Of a DNA stretch of 61,316 bases, positions 12,798 through 26,741 are shown piece by piece. The notes under the pieces were generated by a model. It saw nothing but the letters and a program-made list of their open reading frames with translations, did no database searches and was not told the origin of the DNA. A program made the translations under genes and the position numbers. Numbering within the stretch: position 1 is the stretch's first letter; each line of letters begins with the position of its first letter. This DNA is from a virus (Duplodnaviria > Caudoviricetes), in IMG/VR virus record IMGVR_UViG_3300042465_001021, positions 1 to 61,316 of that record; one strand, written 5' to 3'.

Positions 12798-13000
12798 GTT
12801 ACTCTCCAGACCCGGACACCAAGACACCCGTCCTTTGCAGACGGGTACACCTTGACTCTGATCTTGGCTTTCTTTGCCGACGTATCTACTTTGTAGATCA
12901 TCTCGGCTGGCTTGAGAGTAGGCACGAAGAAACTGTCCCCAATCTGCATGAAGTCAAACGGGAACAGCCACTCCGGTTCCTCAAGCCTTTGTAAGTTCAT
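12794..13000 (-). CDS. small conserved phage hypothetical protein
   Basis: 68 aa; FPFDFMQIGDSFFVP...GVRVWRV; overlaps the primase stop. Confidence 0.65.
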   Translation of the reverse strand: MNLQRLEEPEWLFPFDFMQIGDSFFVPTLKPAEMIYKVDTSAKKAKIRVKVYPSAKDGCLGVRVWRVT

Positions 13001-15794
13001 TCACCAGATTCTCTACATTCTCATCCTTGAACGAGTATACCCACACCGGATGGAAACTTGAGCCGCCCTTCCACCCTGCACCAAGACGCTTCTTCTCGGT
13101 GTTGACCAGAAGTCCCTGCGTGGTCATAACGTGTTCAAACTTACGTACGCTGATGCCACGGGTAGACAAGAACTTCTTAAACTCCGTACGGGATACGTAA
13201 TACATTTTAGTATCCGACTCGATGCGGCCAAGTAACTGCCTCGGGTCGTACTGGTTGACCAAACGATCACCGTCGAAGATCAAGAAGGTGGACTGATTCA
13301 GGTTGCAGAACTCACCAAGCAAAGTCTTGTAGTCGCTCGGATCGATCTTCACCGCGTTGTCGCGGATGTCCATGATGTCAGTTAAGACTTTCTGGTAGAT
13401 GTGATCCAGATCAAGGTTGGTGATCCCGGCTTCGTTGGCGATCTCGCCGCCTGCGAAAGCAGCAGCAACTAGACTCTCGTAGAAGCGATGGCTAACGTCG
13501 TCGCCAAAGTCAGCACGGAATCGGTACTGCCAAGCTTCGATCTTTCTCTTGATCTGCTCCTCGCCAATCTTATACAAGTACTTGATGAATTCCGGGCCTG
13601 CGTGCCCATAGTTAAAGCGGAATGGGTTAAACATCTGCATACCCAACTCGCGGGTTAGGGCATGGGGCCGCTTCACATCGAACTCAACGATACGAGCCAC
13701 CTCACCGTCCGGGCTTGCCTTCAGTTGCTGCAACTTGTCGTAGAGCGGCGAGTTAGTCGTGAAGATTCCAATCAGCGAGGCAGTCATCTCCAAGTCTCGT
13801 TCGGCGTTGACCGAGGACTGCATACGCAACTTGGCCTTACCTTGCGAGATGCGGTGAGCCAGACGGGAGATTGCTTCAGGGTCTGCGTTGGATGCTTCGT
13901 CGATACCAAGCGGCAGGTTCTTCAGATTCAGCAACCGACCAACAAACGCATTATCCGTCGCGTTGCCATCCAGTACGCTGAGTTCTCTCGGGTCACCCCA
14001 GACAGAAAGTGCAGAGTACATGGCGCTCGTCTTACCCGTGCCTGATTCCGCGCTTGCAAAAGAGACGCACACACCCGCCGTTGGGGTCAGGTACATCAAG
14101 GGTGAGCCAAACCCGCACAGCAAACCAAAGGCATGAAGTTCAAACCCCGGAGCATTCATCGCATTCGCAGACTGCTTCCACAAGTCATACTCGCCAGTGG
14201 GTCGAAGTAGTTTAGAAATGTTACGAACCAAAGGACTCGCGGATGCTTTGACAACCTCGCCGCTAGGAGTTACCTCAGTTCCACCGATAACGAAAGCGTC
14301 ACGGTTTTCTGTCCATCCCATCTGCATACGCATGATTTCCGCCTTGTGTTTACTCATCAAGTATTGATCCCACTTGATGATGTAGTTTTGTAAGTGAGTG
14401 ATATGAGTCGGCAAGAAAGTAACGCTGTGGCTACTCAATACCTTCCTAAACAAATCCAGTGCATACACCGAACTCATCGGTAGGATGAATTCTCGCATAG
14501 GATCGTGCTGCATCAAGTGTCGCATCAAAAGACATTCGCCGTCTGCGGTGCTGTACATTCTTTTTACCGGGAATAAATCATTCACCGATAAGCACACCGG
14601 GTCGTCCTGAATCTTGACTCCTTCCTCATCCACCTTTGGTGGCGGCACAAAATAAACGCCGCCGTTCTTGCCACGGGTGTAGGGCTTCAGGAAGGCAGGG
14701 AATGTTGGAACCTCTTCGGGATTCTCCGTGATCCGAACTGTGTCCTCCTCGGACACTTCTTGTGTCGGGGCTTCAAGGAGCCGCTTTCCGATAGCAAGTG
14801 GGTTTGTAACCTTTCCTCGTAGTGGGCAACCGTCACAGCCACCGGGGTTGAGTTGGTCGAACTTGTCGCAGGAGAAGGGCTTGCCAAATGCCTGATTAGC
14901 CTTTTTAACAGTTGTTTCATAGTTGTAACCGGGGTGATCCTCTGACATCAAATGGATAGCACTTTCCCAATCGGTGCAGTGCCGTGCGATTGATAACCCC
15001 GCATACCACAGTGGTTCTTCCAACGTGGCAGCATTGACGAGAATGTGCTTGATCTGAGCGCAGCCCTCATCGCCCAGACTCTTCTCAGCAATGTTTTGGA
15101 ACGTCGTCTCGTAGTTATCCAGACGAGCAATCTTCTTGGTGTCCTCGTCGAGACCTTTCGGAAACATATCCAAAAGACTTGTAGTATCCGGCGCAATAAC
15201 ACCCAGAAAGTCCTTGAAGTCTTCAAAACTGTACTGCCCAAAATCGTGATCCAGCAGCTTAGTTTCGATTGGCTCGTTCTTGTAATTAACTGTTTGGGGA
15301 CAGCGCAAGATACGTGCAGCATCGGCCGTTACTGCCGGGTCAATCTTGATGTGGTCTAAGCACAGTTGCTTGAACTTCAGTGCATACGGCTTCCACTCCT
15401 CGGTAGGAATGTCTCGGTCAAAAAGCCAATACGCATGGACGCCACCGCCTGAATCCACCTTGACTGGTGGAGGCAGTCCGACCATATCAACAAAGTCATT
15501 CAGCGCAGCAAGAGCCTCGTCCTTGCTACGGTACTTCTTTGCGTTGTCGCCTACGTCCAGATCGATAAAGAACGACCGGCAGTAGATGGCATTTTCGGCA
15601 CGACGGCTATAGCCGTTGAACGTGTTTAACGCGACGAATACATTTTGGTTTTCCTCTTTTAGTCCTTCTACCAAGTCCAACAAATCGCTGAGTGTCTCTG
15701 CAAACCGATTGGTAATCTTCCCTTCTTTGTCGATACCTGCGGCACAGTAAACACCCTGCGACGGTAATGCTTTCTCGTAAAATTCTTTTATCAT
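12981..15794 (-). CDS. primase-helicase (N-terminal AEP/RepB-type primase, Cys cluster, DUF927-like P-loop helicase)
   Basis: 937 aa; FIDLD, SGGGVHAYW, ARILRCP primase motifs; C..C..C cluster; Walker A ESGTGKT; Walker B LGIDE. Confidence 0.8.
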   Translation of the reverse strand: MIKEFYEKALPSQGVYCAAGIDKEGKITNRFAETLSDLLDLVEGLKEENQNVFVALNTFNGYSRRAENAIYCRSFFIDLDVGDNAKKYRSKDEALAALNDFVDMVGLPPPVKVDSGGGVHAYWLFDRDIPTEEWKPYALKFKQLCLDHIKIDPAVTADAARILRCPQTVNYKNEPIETKLLDHDFGQYSFEDFKDFLGVIAPDTTSLLDMFPKGLDEDTKKIARLDNYETTFQNIAEKSLGDEGCAQIKHILVNAATLEEPLWYAGLSIARHCTDWESAIHLMSEDHPGYNYETTVKKANQAFGKPFSCDKFDQLNPGGCDGCPLRGKVTNPLAIGKRLLEAPTQEVSEEDTVRITENPEEVPTFPAFLKPYTRGKNGGVYFVPPPKVDEEGVKIQDDPVCLSVNDLFPVKRMYSTADGECLLMRHLMQHDPMREFILPMSSVYALDLFRKVLSSHSVTFLPTHITHLQNYIIKWDQYLMSKHKAEIMRMQMGWTENRDAFVIGGTEVTPSGEVVKASASPLVRNISKLLRPTGEYDLWKQSANAMNAPGFELHAFGLLCGFGSPLMYLTPTAGVCVSFASAESGTGKTSAMYSALSVWGDPRELSVLDGNATDNAFVGRLLNLKNLPLGIDEASNADPEAISRLAHRISQGKAKLRMQSSVNAERDLEMTASLIGIFTTNSPLYDKLQQLKASPDGEVARIVEFDVKRPHALTRELGMQMFNPFRFNYGHAGPEFIKYLYKIGEEQIKRKIEAWQYRFRADFGDDVSHRFYESLVAAAFAGGEIANEAGITNLDLDHIYQKVLTDIMDIRDNAVKIDPSDYKTLLGEFCNLNQSTFLIFDGDRLVNQYDPRQLLGRIESDTKMYYVSRTEFKKFLSTRGISVRKFEHVMTTQGLLVNTEKKRLGAGWKGGSSFHPVWVYSFKDENVENLVNELTKA

Positions 15795-15808: not shown

Positions 15809-15836
15809 AAAAAAGGCGGGGTGGCAGTCCCCCGCC
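15809..15836 (-). terminator. Rho-independent terminator-like hairpin
   Basis: Minus strand GGCGGGG-GACTGCCA-CCCCGCC followed by TTTTTT. Confidence 0.7.
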
Positions 15837-17446: not shown

Positions 17447-19033
17447 TCACACCTCGTCCAGTTCCTGTTTATACAAATCGACAATCTTTTGATGACTGTC
17501 TACCTTTCCTTGCAGCATCGCGTACATCTTTCTCTCAACATCCGAACCTTGCAGATGAACCACCGTCATCTTGTTTTTCTGTCCAACTCGCTCGATACGC
17601 CCGATGCACTGCAAGTAGGTCTCGACAGACATCACAGGCGACCAAAAAACAATCGTGTCAGCAGCAGTCAGTGTGATTCCGTGCGATGCAGATTGAGGCT
17701 GAATTACTAGCACTCTCGGATCGGCACTCGTCTGGAATTGGTTGACGATCTCCGATCTATTCTGGGCACTGACAGAACCTTGTATGACGGCGACTGACTC
17801 TCCTTGCTTTCTCAGATACTCCACAACAATCTCGATGGTGTGGATGTATGGAACGAATATTACTACCTTGTTGGACGTTTCATCAAGTGTTTCTTGCAGG
17901 GCATTTAGCCGAGGCGAAACATCAAACTCCACCACATCTCGCTTGTCGGTGTAAACAGCCCCGCCTGAAATTTGTAACAGTTTATTTAGGGCAGCCGCTG
18001 CGTTGACTGCGCTGATCTGCTCCCCCGCTGCCTCGATAAGAAGTTGTTGCTTCAGTGACTTGTAGTACTGTGCTACTTGAGTAGTCAACGGTATGTCTCT
18101 TGTCTGGTACACCAAGTCGGGCAGATCAAGACAGTCCTTCTTGCAGTATCTAATTGCAGGTTGCAGTGCCTTGTAGACCTCAACCTGTGACGTTGGCTTC
18201 GGCATCCACTTGAATCGCGTCACGGGATACATTACCCGGTCACGCCATGCCATTGTGAACTTGGGGACTCTATAAGGAGATACCAGTTTTGCGATGCCGA
18301 ACGCATCGACAGGAGACTGCGATGCCGGTGTGCCGGTCATCATCCATAGCCACGTATGCGGCTGAATCAGTTTGGCAAGCGTCTTCCACCGCCGTGTCGA
18401 TGTCGTCTTGTATGCGTTGGCTTCGTCCACGATGATCAGATCGTAGTTAGCCTCAAGCAATTCTTTGAACACGACGAACGTACCATCGTAATTAATGATC
18501 GTGAAGTCAGACTCTTCGTCGATCAGATTCTTTCGTTTGGTAGCCGAGCCGTGTGCGATGGCGCAGCGACGGTGCATTGCTGTCTTAAAGATGTCTGCCT
18601 GCCACGCTGAATACATAATCGACAACGGACAGATCACAAGCACCTTCTTGATCACGCCGATGTTCATCAAATAGTCAGCAGCCCAGATCGCCGCAGATGT
18701 CTTGCCTGTGCCTGCCTCGTTGAAGCAGAACGCTCGTGGCCTTACCGAGAGAAACGACGCCGTATCTTTCTGATGTTCAAACGGTGTGTGGAATCCCGGC
18801 CAGTTGTAGTCACGCAGGATCGGTGAGGGAATCTTTGGCAGCGACGGATCAGGTTGTTCAACGTCAATGATCGACGCCAACTTCATCGCTTCCTCTTGTC
18901 CCCAGTACACCAACACTTCTTTACTTTCTTCGCCTGACTTCAGAATCTCGCACTTCTCAATGCGCGAATAGGCTTCATCCGCTAGTTGCGGATTCACCTG
19001 AAACTGAAGTGCTGTGTTCTCTATTACTTGCAT
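17447..19033 (-). CDS. SNF2-family DNA helicase
   Basis: 528 aa; NEAGTGKT, IIVDEA, MTGTP, HGITLT, QCIGRIERVGQ helicase motifs. Confidence 0.9.
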   Translation of the reverse strand: MQVIENTALQFQVNPQLADEAYSRIEKCEILKSGEESKEVLVYWGQEEAMKLASIIDVEQPDPSLPKIPSPILRDYNWPGFHTPFEHQKDTASFLSVRPRAFCFNEAGTGKTSAAIWAADYLMNIGVIKKVLVICPLSIMYSAWQADIFKTAMHRRCAIAHGSATKRKNLIDEESDFTIINYDGTFVVFKELLEANYDLIIVDEANAYKTTSTRRWKTLAKLIQPHTWLWMMTGTPASQSPVDAFGIAKLVSPYRVPKFTMAWRDRVMYPVTRFKWMPKPTSQVEVYKALQPAIRYCKKDCLDLPDLVYQTRDIPLTTQVAQYYKSLKQQLLIEAAGEQISAVNAAAALNKLLQISGGAVYTDKRDVVEFDVSPRLNALQETLDETSNKVVIFVPYIHTIEIVVEYLRKQGESVAVIQGSVSAQNRSEIVNQFQTSADPRVLVIQPQSASHGITLTAADTIVFWSPVMSVETYLQCIGRIERVGQKNKMTVVHLQGSDVERKMYAMLQGKVDSHQKIVDLYKQELDEV

Positions 19034-19066
19034 TATATAAACCTAACTATACACCACTGGTGAATT

Positions 19067-19220
19067 AAAAAGCCCGTAACGTGGGCCAATCGTCTGAAGC
19101 ATGGGAGAAAGTGTAAGACCATCTTCAGATGACGCAGTTAATGTGTTGGGTGGACTAAACCCTGTGGGAGAGGTATGAAATCCCACGCCGTCGTAGTCAC
19201 TTGCGCCTTGACTGAACGGT
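19067..19220 (-). ncRNA. candidate ~155-nt structured small RNA with own promoter and terminator
   Basis: Intergenic; four hairpins plus terminal GCCC-ACGTTAC-GGGC-TTTTT; promoter immediately upstream. Confidence 0.55.
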
Positions 19221-19226
19221 ATTCAA

Positions 19227-19255
19227 TTTATAAGGACTCCCGTACAAGCAGTCAA
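19227..19255 (-). promoter_or_regulatory. sigma70-type promoter
   Basis: Minus strand TTGACT-N17-TATAAA. Confidence 0.65.
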
Positions 19256-19259
19256 GCCC

Positions 19260-19514
19260 CTATTTCATCGACCCATCCGACTTTCTACGGAACGAGCGGT
19301 TCTTGCTAGGCGGCTCTAACCGTGTGCCAGTCTTGTTACTGCCGCCCTTCGACAAGGCTTTCACATGGGCAACGTCCTTGCCCTTTCTGCTAATACCTTT
19401 CTTGTCGTAAGAACGACGCGCCCGTTGGCGCTCCATGCGGTTCTCGTGTTCGCCACGCTCAACCTGCTGCTCGTATTCCTTCTTGTACGGCCTCGCCTTG
19501 TTCACGTACGGCAT
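19260..19514 (-). CDS. small HNH-like protein
   Basis: 84 aa, basic; KDVAHVKALSKGGSN...NRSF resembles an HNH core. Confidence 0.6.
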   Translation of the reverse strand: MPYVNKARPYKKEYEQQVERGEHENRMERQRARRSYDKKGISRKGKDVAHVKALSKGGSNKTGTRLEPPSKNRSFRRKSDGSMK

Positions 19515-20171
19515 CTATCTGCCTCCATAAAATTTGCACGATTCAACTGGGCAATGCTTGCGGCACAGCCCGGTCGGGTTAGGCGGCCATACTGCGTTGT
19601 CGAATGCAATACTCAACCTGCCTAGTTCTACTTCAAAGACCTTCCACATTCCCTCAATGTCATCCCTGACATACTCTTCCGTAATGAAGATGTTGTGCAA
19701 AAGAAACATTAGCCCAGACTTTATGTTCTGTACCGCCGGGAAATGTGCAAAGACCATCAATCCCATCAACTTCAACTGGTTCGGGTCGGCATAGGTCGGC
19801 TTGCCTGTCTTGTAATCGACGATGTAGGCGGTGTCCCCGTCTACGATCAGCAAGTCGGCTATGCCCCGTACCCAGTAATCCTCCCCGCCAAACTCACACG
19901 GCTCCTTGGCTGCATTCAGTGCCATCTCGTGTTCGCAATACTTGGTTCCCGGTATCTCAAGGAGCGGGTCAACCATCTTGCTAAACGGCTCATAGAACTT
20001 CGGCAGCGCAACGCCGTCCCTCACATAATCTTCTAGTGCCTTGTGAACCTCTTTACCGTACCGGGCATCATCACCCTCTCGGGATATGAAGTTCTTGGCG
20101 ACACGGATCTCATAGTACTGCTTCGGACAAGTCTTGTACTGTTTGAGACTGCTGTAACTCCACTTGACCAT
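19515..20171 (-). CDS. PD-(D/E)XK (RecB/Cas4-like) exonuclease
   Basis: WSYSSLKQYKTCP, RGIADLLI, IVDYKTGK, QLKLMG, C-terminal CxxxCxxxxC. Confidence 0.85.
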   Translation of the reverse strand: MVKWSYSSLKQYKTCPKQYYEIRVAKNFISREGDDARYGKEVHKALEDYVRDGVALPKFYEPFSKMVDPLLEIPGTKYCEHEMALNAAKEPCEFGGEDYWVRGIADLLIVDGDTAYIVDYKTGKPTYADPNQLKLMGLMVFAHFPAVQNIKSGLMFLLHNIFITEEYVRDDIEGMWKVFEVELGRLSIAFDNAVWPPNPTGLCRKHCPVESCKFYGGR

Positions 20172-22027
20172 TAACAATCCCCATAGGACTCTCCGTATTT
20201 AGCTTCACAAGCGACGGGTAGTCCGGTTGCCCAATCTGGTGGAGTAGACATTACTTTAGTTATGAACGCAAGTGCTTCATCTATCTCAGGTTTTGGAACC
20301 ACAATTACGGCAGCGTCATGCACCGTCAGCACCGGACGGTATTTTTCCCGGATCTTTAACATCTGTTCCCCGACGATGATCCGGGCGAGTGCCTGCACCA
20401 CGTTCTCCACGACAGCGCCGCCCCATATCGTGACCTTGCCCTTGCGAGAATCGTACGTAGCCTTATTGTCTTCGTATCGTAGGTTGGGGTAATTAATCTT
20501 TAGACCATTCGGCAGGAATATGCCTTTGTTAGACGCACGTACGACTGCGTGTTCCCCAAGCATGTATCCGTACCTTTCACCCTCCAACACGATCATATCC
20601 TTCAAAGCCTGATCACATTCACGCCACAACTCGACGATCCTGTAGTTAGATTCTCGGTACAGATCGACAATCGCTTTGCACTGCTTCTCAGTCAGATCAG
20701 CACCGGGCGGTTGCGTCTTCAGTGTGTGCTGCAACTTGGCCGCGCCTGTGCCGTAACCCAATCCCAAGATACAAGTCTTACCGACGAATCGTTCGACCGG
20801 ATCAGCCTTGCTGATGTGCCGCTTGTAAATCTTCGATGCAAAGATCGAATACACATCCTCGCCCTTGCGGAACTGACTCGTTACGTCAGACTGTCCTGCC
20901 AACCATGCAAGTACACGGGCTTCTATTTGCGACGAGTCGCAGTTGATAATGAAATGACCCTGCGGAGCGACCACCGAATTCTTGAGTGCCTTCTTTTTCT
21001 TGTCTCGTGAAGGAAGGTTTTGTAGGTTGACGGAATCCATGCCCGACCAACGGCCTGTGTGAGCGCCGTAATACTTGAGCGGGATAGGTAGCCGACCGCG
21101 ATTCCTAGCACCAATATGTATAAAGCGTTCAATTCTTGACTCCTCTAGTGTTGATTTAGTCCCAAGTCTGACTGCACACAACTGCTGCACGAACGGATCT
21201 TCATGCTCCGTCAACGCGATGAATCCCGTATCATTCTTAGCAAGTGCGAATGTTTCCTTGCCAGTCGCAGGGCTAATCTTCATCGGCACAGAAATGTTCA
21301 GACCTTGCAAGATGGCAGCAAACTGTGGGTTGCTTGCCAACTTCTTTCTCACATCTTCTTCAGTCTCACACTTCAACTGTTCTTTCAGTTCGGACAGGAT
21401 GGTGTGCTTCTCTTTCTTGACTTCTTCAAGTCGTGTGACAAGTAACGCATCGTCCACCATCAATACCGGCTCCGTGTACATACGGAGCGTCATGTCGATC
21501 AAGTCTAGTTCTGGTTCCGGAAACGTAACAACCAACCTACTAAAAAGATCATAGGTAAGATCAACATCGTTGCAGCAATAACCAGCATACTTATCAAGAT
21601 CTCCAGAACTAAAATCCAACCTCTTCTTACCCAGTGCATTGATTACCTCCGTTCCTTTCTCCCCCAAGTTATATCGTTTTGCAAGCGCAGCGAGGGAGCC
21701 ACCCGCATCTACGCCGTGAGTTGCTCTGGCCATGCAGAGCGTGTCGAATAGATACGCAGGCTTGATGTCGAACACCCACGACAGGATTGCCCCATCAAAC
21801 TGAGTGTTGTGACACAGGAGCGCAGACGTATTCCAGTCCACTTGGTTTAGCCAAGCCTTGATCTCTTCGTGAGTACCGCTGAACCACTCGGTCTCGTTGT
21901 TGTCGATCTTCATAGCCACGCCGATAACTTCAAACCTCGGGTCGCGGATGTACTCCTCGGTCGTCAGTTTGGTTAGGCTATAGTCCTTGGCGTAATACGT
22001 TTCAAAGTCGAGCGTTATGAAACTCAT
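20171..22027 (-). CDS. polA: family A DNA polymerase with 3'-5' exonuclease
   Basis: Start ATG 22027 (MSFITLDFETY, ExoI); HNTQFD, HTGRWSG, DSSQIEAR (motif A), KTCILGLGYG (motif B), TVHDA (motif C). Confidence 0.9.
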   Translation of the reverse strand: MSFITLDFETYYAKDYSLTKLTTEEYIRDPRFEVIGVAMKIDNNETEWFSGTHEEIKAWLNQVDWNTSALLCHNTQFDGAILSWVFDIKPAYLFDTLCMARATHGVDAGGSLAALAKRYNLGEKGTEVINALGKKRLDFSSGDLDKYAGYCCNDVDLTYDLFSRLVVTFPEPELDLIDMTLRMYTEPVLMVDDALLVTRLEEVKKEKHTILSELKEQLKCETEEDVRKKLASNPQFAAILQGLNISVPMKISPATGKETFALAKNDTGFIALTEHEDPFVQQLCAVRLGTKSTLEESRIERFIHIGARNRGRLPIPLKYYGAHTGRWSGMDSVNLQNLPSRDKKKKALKNSVVAPQGHFIINCDSSQIEARVLAWLAGQSDVTSQFRKGEDVYSIFASKIYKRHISKADPVERFVGKTCILGLGYGTGAAKLQHTLKTQPPGADLTEKQCKAIVDLYRESNYRIVELWRECDQALKDMIVLEGERYGYMLGEHAVVRASNKGIFLPNGLKINYPNLRYEDNKATYDSRKGKVTIWGGAVVENVVQALARIIVGEQMLKIREKYRPVLTVHDAAVIVVPKPEIDEALAFITKVMSTPPDWATGLPVACEAKYGESYGDC

Positions 22028-22203
22028 GACGCCCTCGCAACAACAAGTTTCCAACCTTTTCCGGTCTCAACAAATCCTGCCGCTGCCAATGCCTCAACTG
22101 ATCGGCAACCACCAAACTTGTATCGATGTGAATGAAACGCGCCTGCCGTAGCAAACTTGCGCTTACACTCAGTACACCTTCTTTCTTGCTTTACGACGCT
22201 CAC
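22024..22203 (-). CDS. small zinc-finger protein (not in ORF track)
   Basis: 59 aa MSVVKQERRCTECKRKFATAGAFHSHRYKFGGC...; CxxC...HxH...C; stop overlaps the polA ATG (ATGA). Confidence 0.6.
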   Translation of the reverse strand: MSVVKQERRCTECKRKFATAGAFHSHRYKFGGCRSVEALAAAGFVETGKGWKLVVARAS

Positions 22204-25983: not shown

Positions 25984-26628
25984 TTAATCTCTCTCGTCGT
26001 TTATGTTTACCAACAAGTCTTCCATGATCTTTCCAATGTTGGTTTCTTTACTAACATGGGCTTGCAATTTTCTAATTGCCTTATGCTCCAACTGTCGTAC
26101 GCGCTCTTGTGATACGCCTAAATCTAAACCGATATCCTCAAGAGACCTCACTTCTCCGTTCAGGCCGAACCTCTCGCTCAATATCATTCTTTCTCGCGGA
26201 GTCAGTACCGCAGCCATAGCCTTGTTCAGTACGTTCTCCGTTTCTTCCTGTGCGATCTCACGAATCCCTGCATTGTCACGCATATCTTCAAGACGGTCGT
26301 TCCAGAGTTCGCCACCGGCAAGACCTACAAGTTCAGACTCGGTAACGTCTTTGGTTCCCGTCGATGTGGTCAATACAAGTACCTTCTGACGTTCACTGAA
26401 CAGATCATTAGGCAACGCATACAACGCATCGCACAACTGCAACACACACTTTCTCCACTCACCCTTCTGGTTAAGCGGAGATGCTTTCATGTTTATGAGA
26501 TCGAACGTAGCGCCGATTGGTAAGTTCTTTTCTCTGCACATCTGAAGTACAGACGGATACCCCGCAGCCTCCATCGCTCGACGTATTCGTGCGTTCGATA
26601 CGGATATCTTTACTCTGTAGTCGCTCAC
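25984..26628 (-). CDS. HTH + sigma70 region 4 fusion protein
   Basis: Likely GTG start 26628; C-terminal LTPRERMILSERFGL...SLEDIGLDLGVSQERVRQLEHKAIRKL is sigma70 region 4; N-terminal Cro-like segment; no region 2. Confidence 0.75.
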   Translation of the reverse strand: MSDYRVKISVSNARIRRAMEAAGYPSVLQMCREKNLPIGATFDLINMKASPLNQKGEWRKCVLQLCDALYALPNDLFSERQKVLVLTTSTGTKDVTESELVGLAGGELWNDRLEDMRDNAGIREIAQEETENVLNKAMAAVLTPRERMILSERFGLNGEVRSLEDIGLDLGVSQERVRQLEHKAIRKLQAHVSKETNIGKIMEDLLVNINDERD

Positions 26629-26741
26629 CAGTATTCCCTCCCTCCACGCTTCGCTCCCCATGCAGGTGGAGGCACGTGCGCCCACTCACGCTTACGAAAG
26701 TCCTCGCGTCTCTTGAAGAAACCTAATAGCCAACGGATCAT
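26625..26741 (-). CDS. small hypothetical peptide (38 aa, not in ORF track)
   Basis: MIRWLLGFFKRREDFRKREWAHVPPPAWGAKRGGREYW*; GGAGGT upstream; ATGA/GTGA coupling at both ends. Confidence 0.5.
   Translation of the reverse strand: MIRWLLGFFKRREDFRKREWAHVPPPAWGAKRGGREYW

Follow-up and report, generated by a model that had tools for sequence, protein, structure and literature searches.

The eps-associated RNA (EAR) of the Bacillales is a pseudoknot-containing processive antitermination element that lies between two genes of a long operon with internal terminators. In phage HK022, the put RNA is an RNA-only processive antiterminator—acting in cis on the transcribing polymerase and suppressing downstream terminators—that is found just after a promoter or further into an operon and needs no specific neighbor gene. 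It comprises about 70 nucleotides (nt) in two stem-loops, which take a V shape with a triplex, and binds the β′ zinc-binding domain (main text of PMC9378689). A survey of IMG/VR from 2023 reports 8,495 candidate "DNAVirus_X" csRNAs of 29 to 151 bases, with a mean of 67, and refers in its main text to the pseudoknot of T4 gene 32 as autoregulatory (PMC10690425). The subject of this article is an RNA element in the window, by which the whole analyzed stretch of DNA is meant: the virus record IMGVR_UViG_3300042465_001021, 61,316 nt long and with a completeness estimate of 97%. On the minus strand, between the genes of a basic protein of 84 amino acids (aa) and of an SNF2-family helicase, lies a gap that holds one copy of an uncatalogued family of pseudoknotted RNAs of about 125 to 180 nt. 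Comparison with its relatives establishes the fold and strand of this RNA and the family to which it belongs, and shows that it is confined to phage contigs and lies between genes of the same direction.

Anatomy and conservation of the RNA

The minus-strand genes span the window from about 35.5 kilobases (kb) down to 12.8 kb, and the stretch 19034–19259 is the largest gap without an open reading frame (ORF) in the minus-strand block of about 12.8–33 kb, as judged from a greedy ORF map. A preliminary description of this DNA, made from the sequence alone, had singled out this gap as the sizeable one in the replication operon, which is borne out. The minus-strand promoter TTGACT-N17-TATAAA (19255–19227) and the GUGGGA/UCCCAC hairpin (19164–19186) are both present where it had placed them, and its terminator, written as GCCC/GGGC plus U5, corresponds to a terminator-like hairpin at 19087–19071 followed by U to 19067. 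L003, a relative of 90% identity, keeps both promoter hexamers and their 17-nt spacing with a changed spacer sequence. The promoter is missing from the list produced by our promoter scan, since the scan demands a T at the last −10 position. The RNA would start near 19220, where the match of the covariance model begins; read directly from the minus strand, the hairpin stretch after the promoter measures about 154 nt. The individual parts, in their order along the RNA, are as follows.

19255–19250, minus strand: −35 hexamer TTGACT, five of six consensus matches
19232–19227, minus strand: −10 hexamer TATAAA, five of six consensus matches, separated from the −35 hexamer by 17 nt
19068–19220, minus strand: whole RNA element, matched by covariance model R1 with 86.5 bits, the sole match in the 61,316-nt genome
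19188–19219, minus strand: P1 hairpin, with outer strands CCGU (19219–19216) and ACGG (19191–19188) and inner strands AGUCA (19213–19209) and UGACU (19199–19195)
19208–19200, minus strand: P1 loop AGGCGCAAG, from the fold with pseudoknot bases blocked
19202–19207, minus strand: pseudoknot 5′ strand GGCGCA, within the P1 loop, with its partner at 19136–19131
19164–19186, minus strand: P2 hairpin, GUGGGA (19186–19181) and UCCCAC (19169–19164) around the loop UUUCAUACCUC, the 5′ strand being rich in G and the 3′ strand in C
19148–19162, minus strand: P2b, a small optional hairpin GGGU/ACCC found in some clades only
19136–19131, minus strand: pseudoknot 3′ strand UGCGUC, directly after the invariant AAC at 19139–19137
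19093–19129, minus strand: P3 hairpin, 7 + 4 pairs with a bulged G at 19100
19118–19105, minus strand: P3 loop UCUUACACUUUCUC, 14 nt, pyrimidine-rich
19088–19092, minus strand: P3–P4 junction CGAUU (CCGAYU in the family), nearly invariant columns
19087–19071, minus strand: P4 hairpin GGCCC/GGGCU with the loop ACGUUAC, then five U to 19067, resembling an intrinsic terminator

The terminator scan, in which P4 counts five pairs, a 7-nt loop and five U, is at chance level overall (14 found vs 13.5 expected). The single-sequence fold of the region has a free energy of −46.8 kcal/mol and a z-score of −2.42, and two of 200 shuffles are as stable. As this is only modestly unusual, it is the comparative evidence that decides whether the RNA exceeds chance.

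Relatives of the helicase were collected from IMG/VR, where 598 were confirmed, and 80 loci were kept for study. The 260 nt before each helicase start contain the same element in most of these loci, down to 62% protein identity. When applied to 47 distinct copies, RNAalifold picked two helices unaided—the pseudoknot and the base of P3—and 13 of the 17 pairs it predicted show changes on both sides. Folding each sequence with the pseudoknot bases blocked gave the layout P1, P2, (P2b), pseudoknot 3′ strand, P3, junction, and P4 in all of them. In the alignment of these 47 copies, 87.2% of the cells are paired compared with 68.9% after shuffling, a value that 0 of 500 shuffles reach, and 36–41% when the pairing partners are slid (26–43% across this and a second alignment). 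From the trimmed alignment, the covariance model R1 was derived (141 positions, 25 pairs). It matches the window and 59 of the 80 helicase-anchored loci at 49–122 bits, with a single match in each, on the helicase strand throughout; L073 is matched weakly at 17.6 bits, and 20 loci are unmatched. All 100 sources of a second set are matched too, and they yield 89 distinct copies. Their alignment has 87.2% of its cells paired vs 70.1% after shuffling (a value equaled in 0 of 500 shuffles), with P1, P3, and P4 favored by its being fitted to R1 for those helices and the pseudoknot standing outside the model. The number of copies per genome is one in all three records.

The best-supported helix of the RNA is the pseudoknot, which the preliminary description had overlooked. 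It pairs in 99.4% of the cells of the first alignment and in 99.8% of those of the second, where four of its seven pairs have changes on both sides and two more vary on one side. As predicted from these alignments, the pairing fits an H-type pseudoknot, with covariation being equally compatible with pairing within one molecule and between two. The outer helix of P3 is paired in 97.9% of the cells with changes on both sides at all seven pairs, and P4 in 90.1%. P1 reaches 72.3%, with changes on both sides at five of seven pairs; since its register differs between clades, fixed columns undercount it. Compensatory changes in related phages, which the preliminary description had proposed to look for, hence support the fold. 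What it had drawn as a 14-base-pair stem is a real hairpin of 11 pairs with one bulged G, namely P3, and the remaining three pairs, which an unconstrained fold adds to it, belong to the pseudoknot according to the covariation. The conserved unpaired bases are AAC, GAGUG, CCGAYU, and the P4 loop, with the AAC before the pseudoknot 3′ strand invariant in 47 of 47 sequences. An all-against-all covariation scan of the 89 sequences recovered the known helices and, beyond the background of relatedness, no other pairing, be it a tertiary contact or a switch.

One pseudoknot pair is G-U in 57 of 89 copies, which would be a C-A mismatch on the other strand. The RNA strand is hence the gene strand, in agreement with the earlier assignment to the minus strand. 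The length of the element ranges from 122 to 179 nt and spreads evenly modulo 3 (31/29/29), so that neither strand is coding: both the plus-strand ORF of 44 aa, considered before as a possible product of the locus, and a minus-strand ORF of 47 aa are out. Two pyrimidine-rich loops had been described. The apex of P3 recurs family-wide, with CTCC or CCTC in 63 of 89 copies, a run of at least six pyrimidines in 69, and UCUCC in 31 compared with 4.8 expected. The P2 loop, which had been read as complementary to a ribosome-binding site plus start codon, differs widely in sequence and length among relatives; enriched in the family are the G-run and the C-run of P2.

Distribution, genomic settings, and transcript layout

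A strict search pattern consisting of pseudoknot, junction, and P4 is found in at least 119 viral contigs and, among 185,579 bacterial species genomes, on one contig, a 7.4-kb piece of a metagenome-assembled genome (MAG). A second pattern (junction and P4) is found in 63 viral contigs and on two short MAG contigs. With viral contigs matched widely and bacterial genomes almost never, this is a phage RNA and not a host RNA. The MAG contigs L201, L205, and L206 are 4.9–11.7 kb short and come from MAGs labeled Chitinophagaceae, Planktophila, and Legionella, labels that give no indication of a host; L206 carries the array of exonuclease, 84-aa ORF, RNA, and helicase and appears to be phage DNA that ended up in the bin. 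The window itself is represented by near-identical DNA in 15 DNA sequencing runs labeled lake water, which contain 86–99% of the sampled words and among which may be the sample of origin. Four RNA-library runs contain small shares of the words, and five contigs of 151–164 nt with a depth of 2–8.7 were obtained, including those of X16 (18955–19105 and 19146–19289), X19 (18933–19075), and X17 (18909–19055, followed by apparent adapter sequence). These contigs may be DNA and are silent on starts, ends, strand, and level, and they are not used here for expression or read-through.

The search of Rfam that had been suggested earlier gives no catalogued family: none of the 4,227 models of Rfam 15 matches in the window at gathering thresholds. 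At E values up to 10, three matches of chance level occur near the gap (E 3.2–8.8), and in 12 diverse members nothing overlaps the RNA. ARAGORN finds 0 tRNA or tmRNA genes in the window, and the RNA is neither of these. No description of this RNA was found in a literature search. When 50,697 phage records were compared with the 1.3 kb surrounding the gap, there were zero nucleotide matches, and in protein comparison the nearest cultured phages reach a helicase identity of at most 41.3%. The closest cultured relatives are thus so distant that there is no annotated or studied relative to lean on.

The genes around the RNA in the window, in the order of transcription, are the following.

20171–22054, minus strand: family A DNA polymerase (PolA), profile matches
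19515–20177, minus strand: PD-(D/E)XK exonuclease, profile matches
19260–19514, minus strand: basic ORF of 84 aa, PHROG 4590 (no function label, 6.9e-08), with its stop 44 nt before P1
17447–19033, minus strand: SNF2-family helicase, Pfam SNF2-rel_dom (2.6e-17) and Helicase_C (6.1e-18), PHROG 62, with its start codon about 35–38 nt past P4
Between the helicase and primase/helicase genes, minus strand: three small ORFs
15815–15836, minus strand: strong intrinsic terminator, seven G-C pairs and six T, with its U-run ending 15 nt before the primase start
12981–15794, minus strand: DUF927 primase/helicase, 937 aa, start codon at 15794

The 84-aa ORF, which is widespread, codes for a very basic protein in which an arginine-rich stretch is conserved and an HNH-like motif can be made out by eye; against Pfam, it gives a subthreshold hint of GH-E (HNH/EndoVII superfamily, E = 0.17). 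It is present in relatives both with and without the RNA.

Among 80 loci found by pattern, the helicase lies downstream of the RNA in 72, two end too soon, and six show another context; among 83 further loci, the helicase is adjacent in 69, five end too soon, and nine are arranged otherwise. The loci of odd context were confirmed by the covariance model. In phages of the L085 type, the RNA overlaps the stop codon of a hydrophobic ORF of 53 aa and is followed by a promoter-like TGTTAGAAT; in four of five such loci scanned, a tRNA-Met comes after the RNA, and then genes for an Sf6-type small terminase and the large terminase. Between RNA and tRNA-Met, about 300–500 nt without a convincing ORF are found in L141 (565–1058), L085, and L091; the frames of small ORFs differ between relatives herein, and the stretch may hold another non-coding element. 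In L093 and L162, the RNA heads genes for a zinc-ribbon protein, DUF3310, a VRR-NUC-like protein, and PolA, about 4.5 kb before the helicase; in L162, the 84-aa ORF directly adjoins the helicase, without the RNA in between. The RNA follows PolA in L209 and L237, and an inserted ORF separates it from the helicase in L005, L094, L130, and L219. Only the 3′ half—P3, junction, and P4—matches the model in L073, L210, L228, and L242; a smaller loop-to-downstream pairing is kept, judged by eye, in L228, L242, L209, and L237. The reduced relative in L073 (782–876) consists of a strong TTGACA-N17-TATAAAAT promoter, one hairpin whose 3′ side is rich in C and U, the conserved junction, and a P4-like hairpin that has kept its loop and is followed by five U; P1, pseudoknot, and P2 are missing, and the 3′ half may be a functional module alone.

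The phages with odd contexts share PolA (51–64% identity), VRR-NUC, and other genes with the window, and G001 shares distant structural genes. Hence, they form one broad phage group in which the position of the RNA has shifted. G001 is a complete genome of 53.9 kb with terminal repeats; it contains one copy of the RNA and no homologue of the 84-aa ORF or the SNF2 helicase. Conversely, L035, L039, and L041, which stand among close kin of RNA-bearing phages, possess both proteins and no RNA. The RNA is thus neither tied to nor required by its neighbors in the window. A search by blastp for a partner protein common to the RNA-bearing phages returned replication and structural genes and one weak match of a 101-aa ORF (E ~1e-5), and nothing convincing.

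By a simple rule, a σ70-like promoter lies directly upstream of the RNA in nine of 89 distinct copies, one of which is doubtful. These belong to the lineage of the window and to several AT-rich lineages, and most are spaced for a start at P1 or a few bases from it; in L044 and L054, the start is further upstream. RNA-less relatives have a promoter at the same position before the helicase. In 75 of 88 copies, the stop codon of the upstream ORF sits −16 to +9 nt from P1, in 81 of 85 a distance of 1–38 nt (median 22) separates P4 from the start of the next ORF, and at least five U within the 7 nt after P4 occur in 17 of 89. With few promoters and U-runs of its own and tightly flanking ORFs, the RNA is part of a longer transcript in most phages, and the self-contained unit is a feature of a lineage. 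P4 of the window, a G+C-rich hairpin with a U-run, is a candidate intrinsic terminator; the family keeps the hairpin and mostly not the U-run. Further downstream, there is no room for a promoter between the strong terminator and the primase start, so that the primase must be expressed by read-through. Most relatives have an equivalent terminator, located about 3.2 kb past the start of the helicase. The PHROG matched by a 233-aa ORF of the window (25984–26685, minus strand) bears the annotation RNA polymerase sigma factor (5.7e-15), so the phage may steer the host polymerase to promoters that a scan for the σ70 consensus does not see.

Possible modes of action

The RNA is tentatively read as a gene-agnostic operon element in cis, resembling an attenuator or an antiterminator. 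As such, it would serve as a checkpoint at the level of the operon and govern the extent to which expression passes from the upstream to the downstream genes. In this phage, the σ70-like promoter would start the RNA at P1, and some of the transcripts would end at P4 with its five U, about 35 nt short of the helicase gene. The polymerase, the ribosome, or another factor would read the pseudoknot domain, and this reading would let transcription through at P4 and at the terminator before the primase, or stop it. The RNA is always co-directional with its neighbors and embedded in transcripts, which supports an action in cis; that it acts on the transcript that carries it, whatever the neighbor gene, is quite conceivable and still somewhat short of probable. 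The fallback of the preliminary description, an attenuator for the SNF2 helicase, is the better fit to the local layout but does not hold as helicase-specific, as the complete relative has the RNA without this helicase.

Several observations weigh against such an operon element. The sequence of P4 is conserved, which is not typical of a terminator in an expression platform, at least five U follow it in 17 of 89 copies only, and no conserved alternative (switch) pairing is found, either by eye or in the all-against-all scan. Copies of the L085 type have no ORF directly after the RNA, just the promoter-like TGTTAGAAT. The RNA is dispensable, being absent from L035, L039, and L041, and the model matches the 3′ half only in L073, L210, L228, and L242. 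A terminator before the primase is present in 46 of 54 RNA-bearing loci vs five of 19 RNA-less loci with enough sequence, which counts in favor of the operon element, but this correlation uses a rule of our own, includes duplicate loci, and ignores relatedness. In L162, which carries the RNA, the primase is preceded by no gap and hence by no terminator, and no strong internal terminator was found on the RNA strand in the late operon of G001 after the RNA. As to the loops, the pyrimidines of the P3 apex are kept in L085-type copies that have no downstream ribosome-binding site, so that simple sequestration of a Shine-Dalgarno sequence is an insufficient account.

Instead of acting on its own transcript, the RNA might be an autonomous, stable molecule working in trans, transcribed from its own promoter here and cut from a polycistronic transcript in most relatives in the manner of phage tRNAs. 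It would bind a partner of host or phage through the conserved unpaired bases or, in one version, pair by its P3 apex with purine-rich ribosome-binding sites. Conservation of the whole molecule including P4 at every position, one copy per genome, dispensability, and a location that varies inside the replication module and, in one lineage, is next to tRNA-Met would all suit such an RNA, as would the enriched pyrimidine-rich apex and, in this phage, the promoter and the hairpin with five U. The stand-alone small RNA gene proposed earlier holds to this extent: promoter and terminator-like end exist in this phage and its closest kin. They are not the rule of the family, in which own promoters (9/89) and good U-runs (17/89) are rare, and no processing sites are known. 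The P2 loop, on which pairing with start codons depended, is not conserved; a generic loop directed against Shine-Dalgarno sequences would also strike the phage's own genes; and the RNA-library contigs, which may be DNA, cross P4 into the helicase gene at a depth of 2–2.5. The family context thus argues against a stand-alone antisense RNA as the general rule, and trans action in the wider sense appears rather doubtful. Less likely again is a self-cleaving ribozyme or an RNase processing or stabilizing site, which would cut the polycistronic messenger RNA between genes and leave protective folded ends. An intergenic, co-transcribed, neighbor-independent, and dispensable element would agree with it, and so would the compact pseudoknot together with the large number of conserved unpaired bases listed above, since such conservation is typical of ribozymes and aptamers. 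However, no ribozyme of Rfam matches the window or the 12 diverse members at E values up to 10, copies reduced to the 3′ half would not be tolerated by a single catalytic fold, and the RNA-library contigs have no shared end that would mark a cleavage site.

That the pseudoknot domain binds a small molecule, with P4 as the expression platform of a riboswitch, is improbable. A pseudoknot with conserved junction bases upstream of genes, followed in this phage by a terminator-like P4, has the outline of one, but the downstream genes are unrelated (helicase, zinc-ribbon protein, VRR-NUC, a 105-aa ORF, tRNA, and terminase), P4 is conserved in sequence rather than variable and without a U-run in most copies, there is no conserved alternative pairing, and no riboswitch family of Rfam 15 matches. 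The helicase downstream in 72 of 80 pattern-found loci and adjacent in 69 of the 83 further ones, together with the basic 84-aa ORF just upstream, could also point to a translational operator that is bound by one of these two proteins for feedback control, by analogy with the pseudoknot of T4 gene 32. This is very improbable: the complete genome G001 has the RNA and neither protein, the 84-aa ORF abuts the helicase in L162 with the RNA about 4.5 kb away, and both proteins occur without the RNA in L035, L039, and L041.

In a broader proposal, the RNA may represent a new class of self-sufficient functional RNA of aquatic phages, conserved like a ribozyme or like an RNA that binds polymerase or ribosome. 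Its pseudoknot core with the invariant unpaired bases would have an activity of its own, independent of the flanks: it might cleave itself, antiterminate without a protein, or capture a host factor. We regard this as possible and not likely; if true, it would explain why the same fold occurs at several sites of the replication module and beside packaging genes.

Other candidates were tried and rejected. A swap of strands between P2 and P4 as an antiterminator works in the window, where GUGGG can pair with CCCAC, and fails by eye in L060 and L076. Translational recoding by a pseudoknot right after a stop codon is contradicted by lengths that are out of frame and, in this phage, by the intervening promoter. 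That P4 imitates a CRISPR repeat is not borne out, as none of the CRISPR-DR models overlaps with the RNA in the window or in the 12 diverse members.

Relation to described RNAs

The family is large and strongly conserved, and it resides in the replication genes of abundant uncultured phages of lakes and other aquatic settings. The near-perfect pseudoknot and the invariant unpaired bases make it a good candidate for biochemistry and structure determination. Should it prove to control transcription or processing by RNA alone, it would be the second or third example on a very short list of such phage elements, and the expression of a primase gene directly behind a strong terminator would be explained. 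Should it merely be a stabilizing structure, it would be an ordinary addition to the long list of orphan phage RNAs.

EAR resembles the RNA described here in its similar size, its pseudoknot, and its intergenic position in an operon with internal terminators. It differs in host group and operon, and no Rfam model matched the window or the 12 members at E values up to 10. With T4 gene 32, the RNA has in common that a phage pseudoknot in the messenger RNA leader immediately precedes a replication gene; that element, as far as the main text of the survey describes it, is tied to one binding protein, whereas this RNA occurs in a genome without the neighbor proteins and at several positions (PMC10690425). 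Like the DNAVirus_X csRNAs, it is a covariation-supported intergenic RNA of uncultured phages from IMG/VR with no assigned role. Compared with these by the description in the main text of the survey, which mentions helicase or SNF2 0 times, it differs in its length range of 122–179 nt (PMC10690425). It is classed here as a probable new family within the familiar group of orphan structured RNAs of phages, with unusually strong support from covariation.

The put RNA is likewise a phage RNA, and the first-ranked mode of action considered here would be a put-like action in cis. The two are set apart by description: the present RNA has 122–179 nt, a pseudoknot, and three or four hairpins plus a terminal hairpin, and the word "pseudoknot" is absent from the main text of the put paper (PMC9378689). 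By size and fold, it is hence not a member of the put family, but it could work alike.

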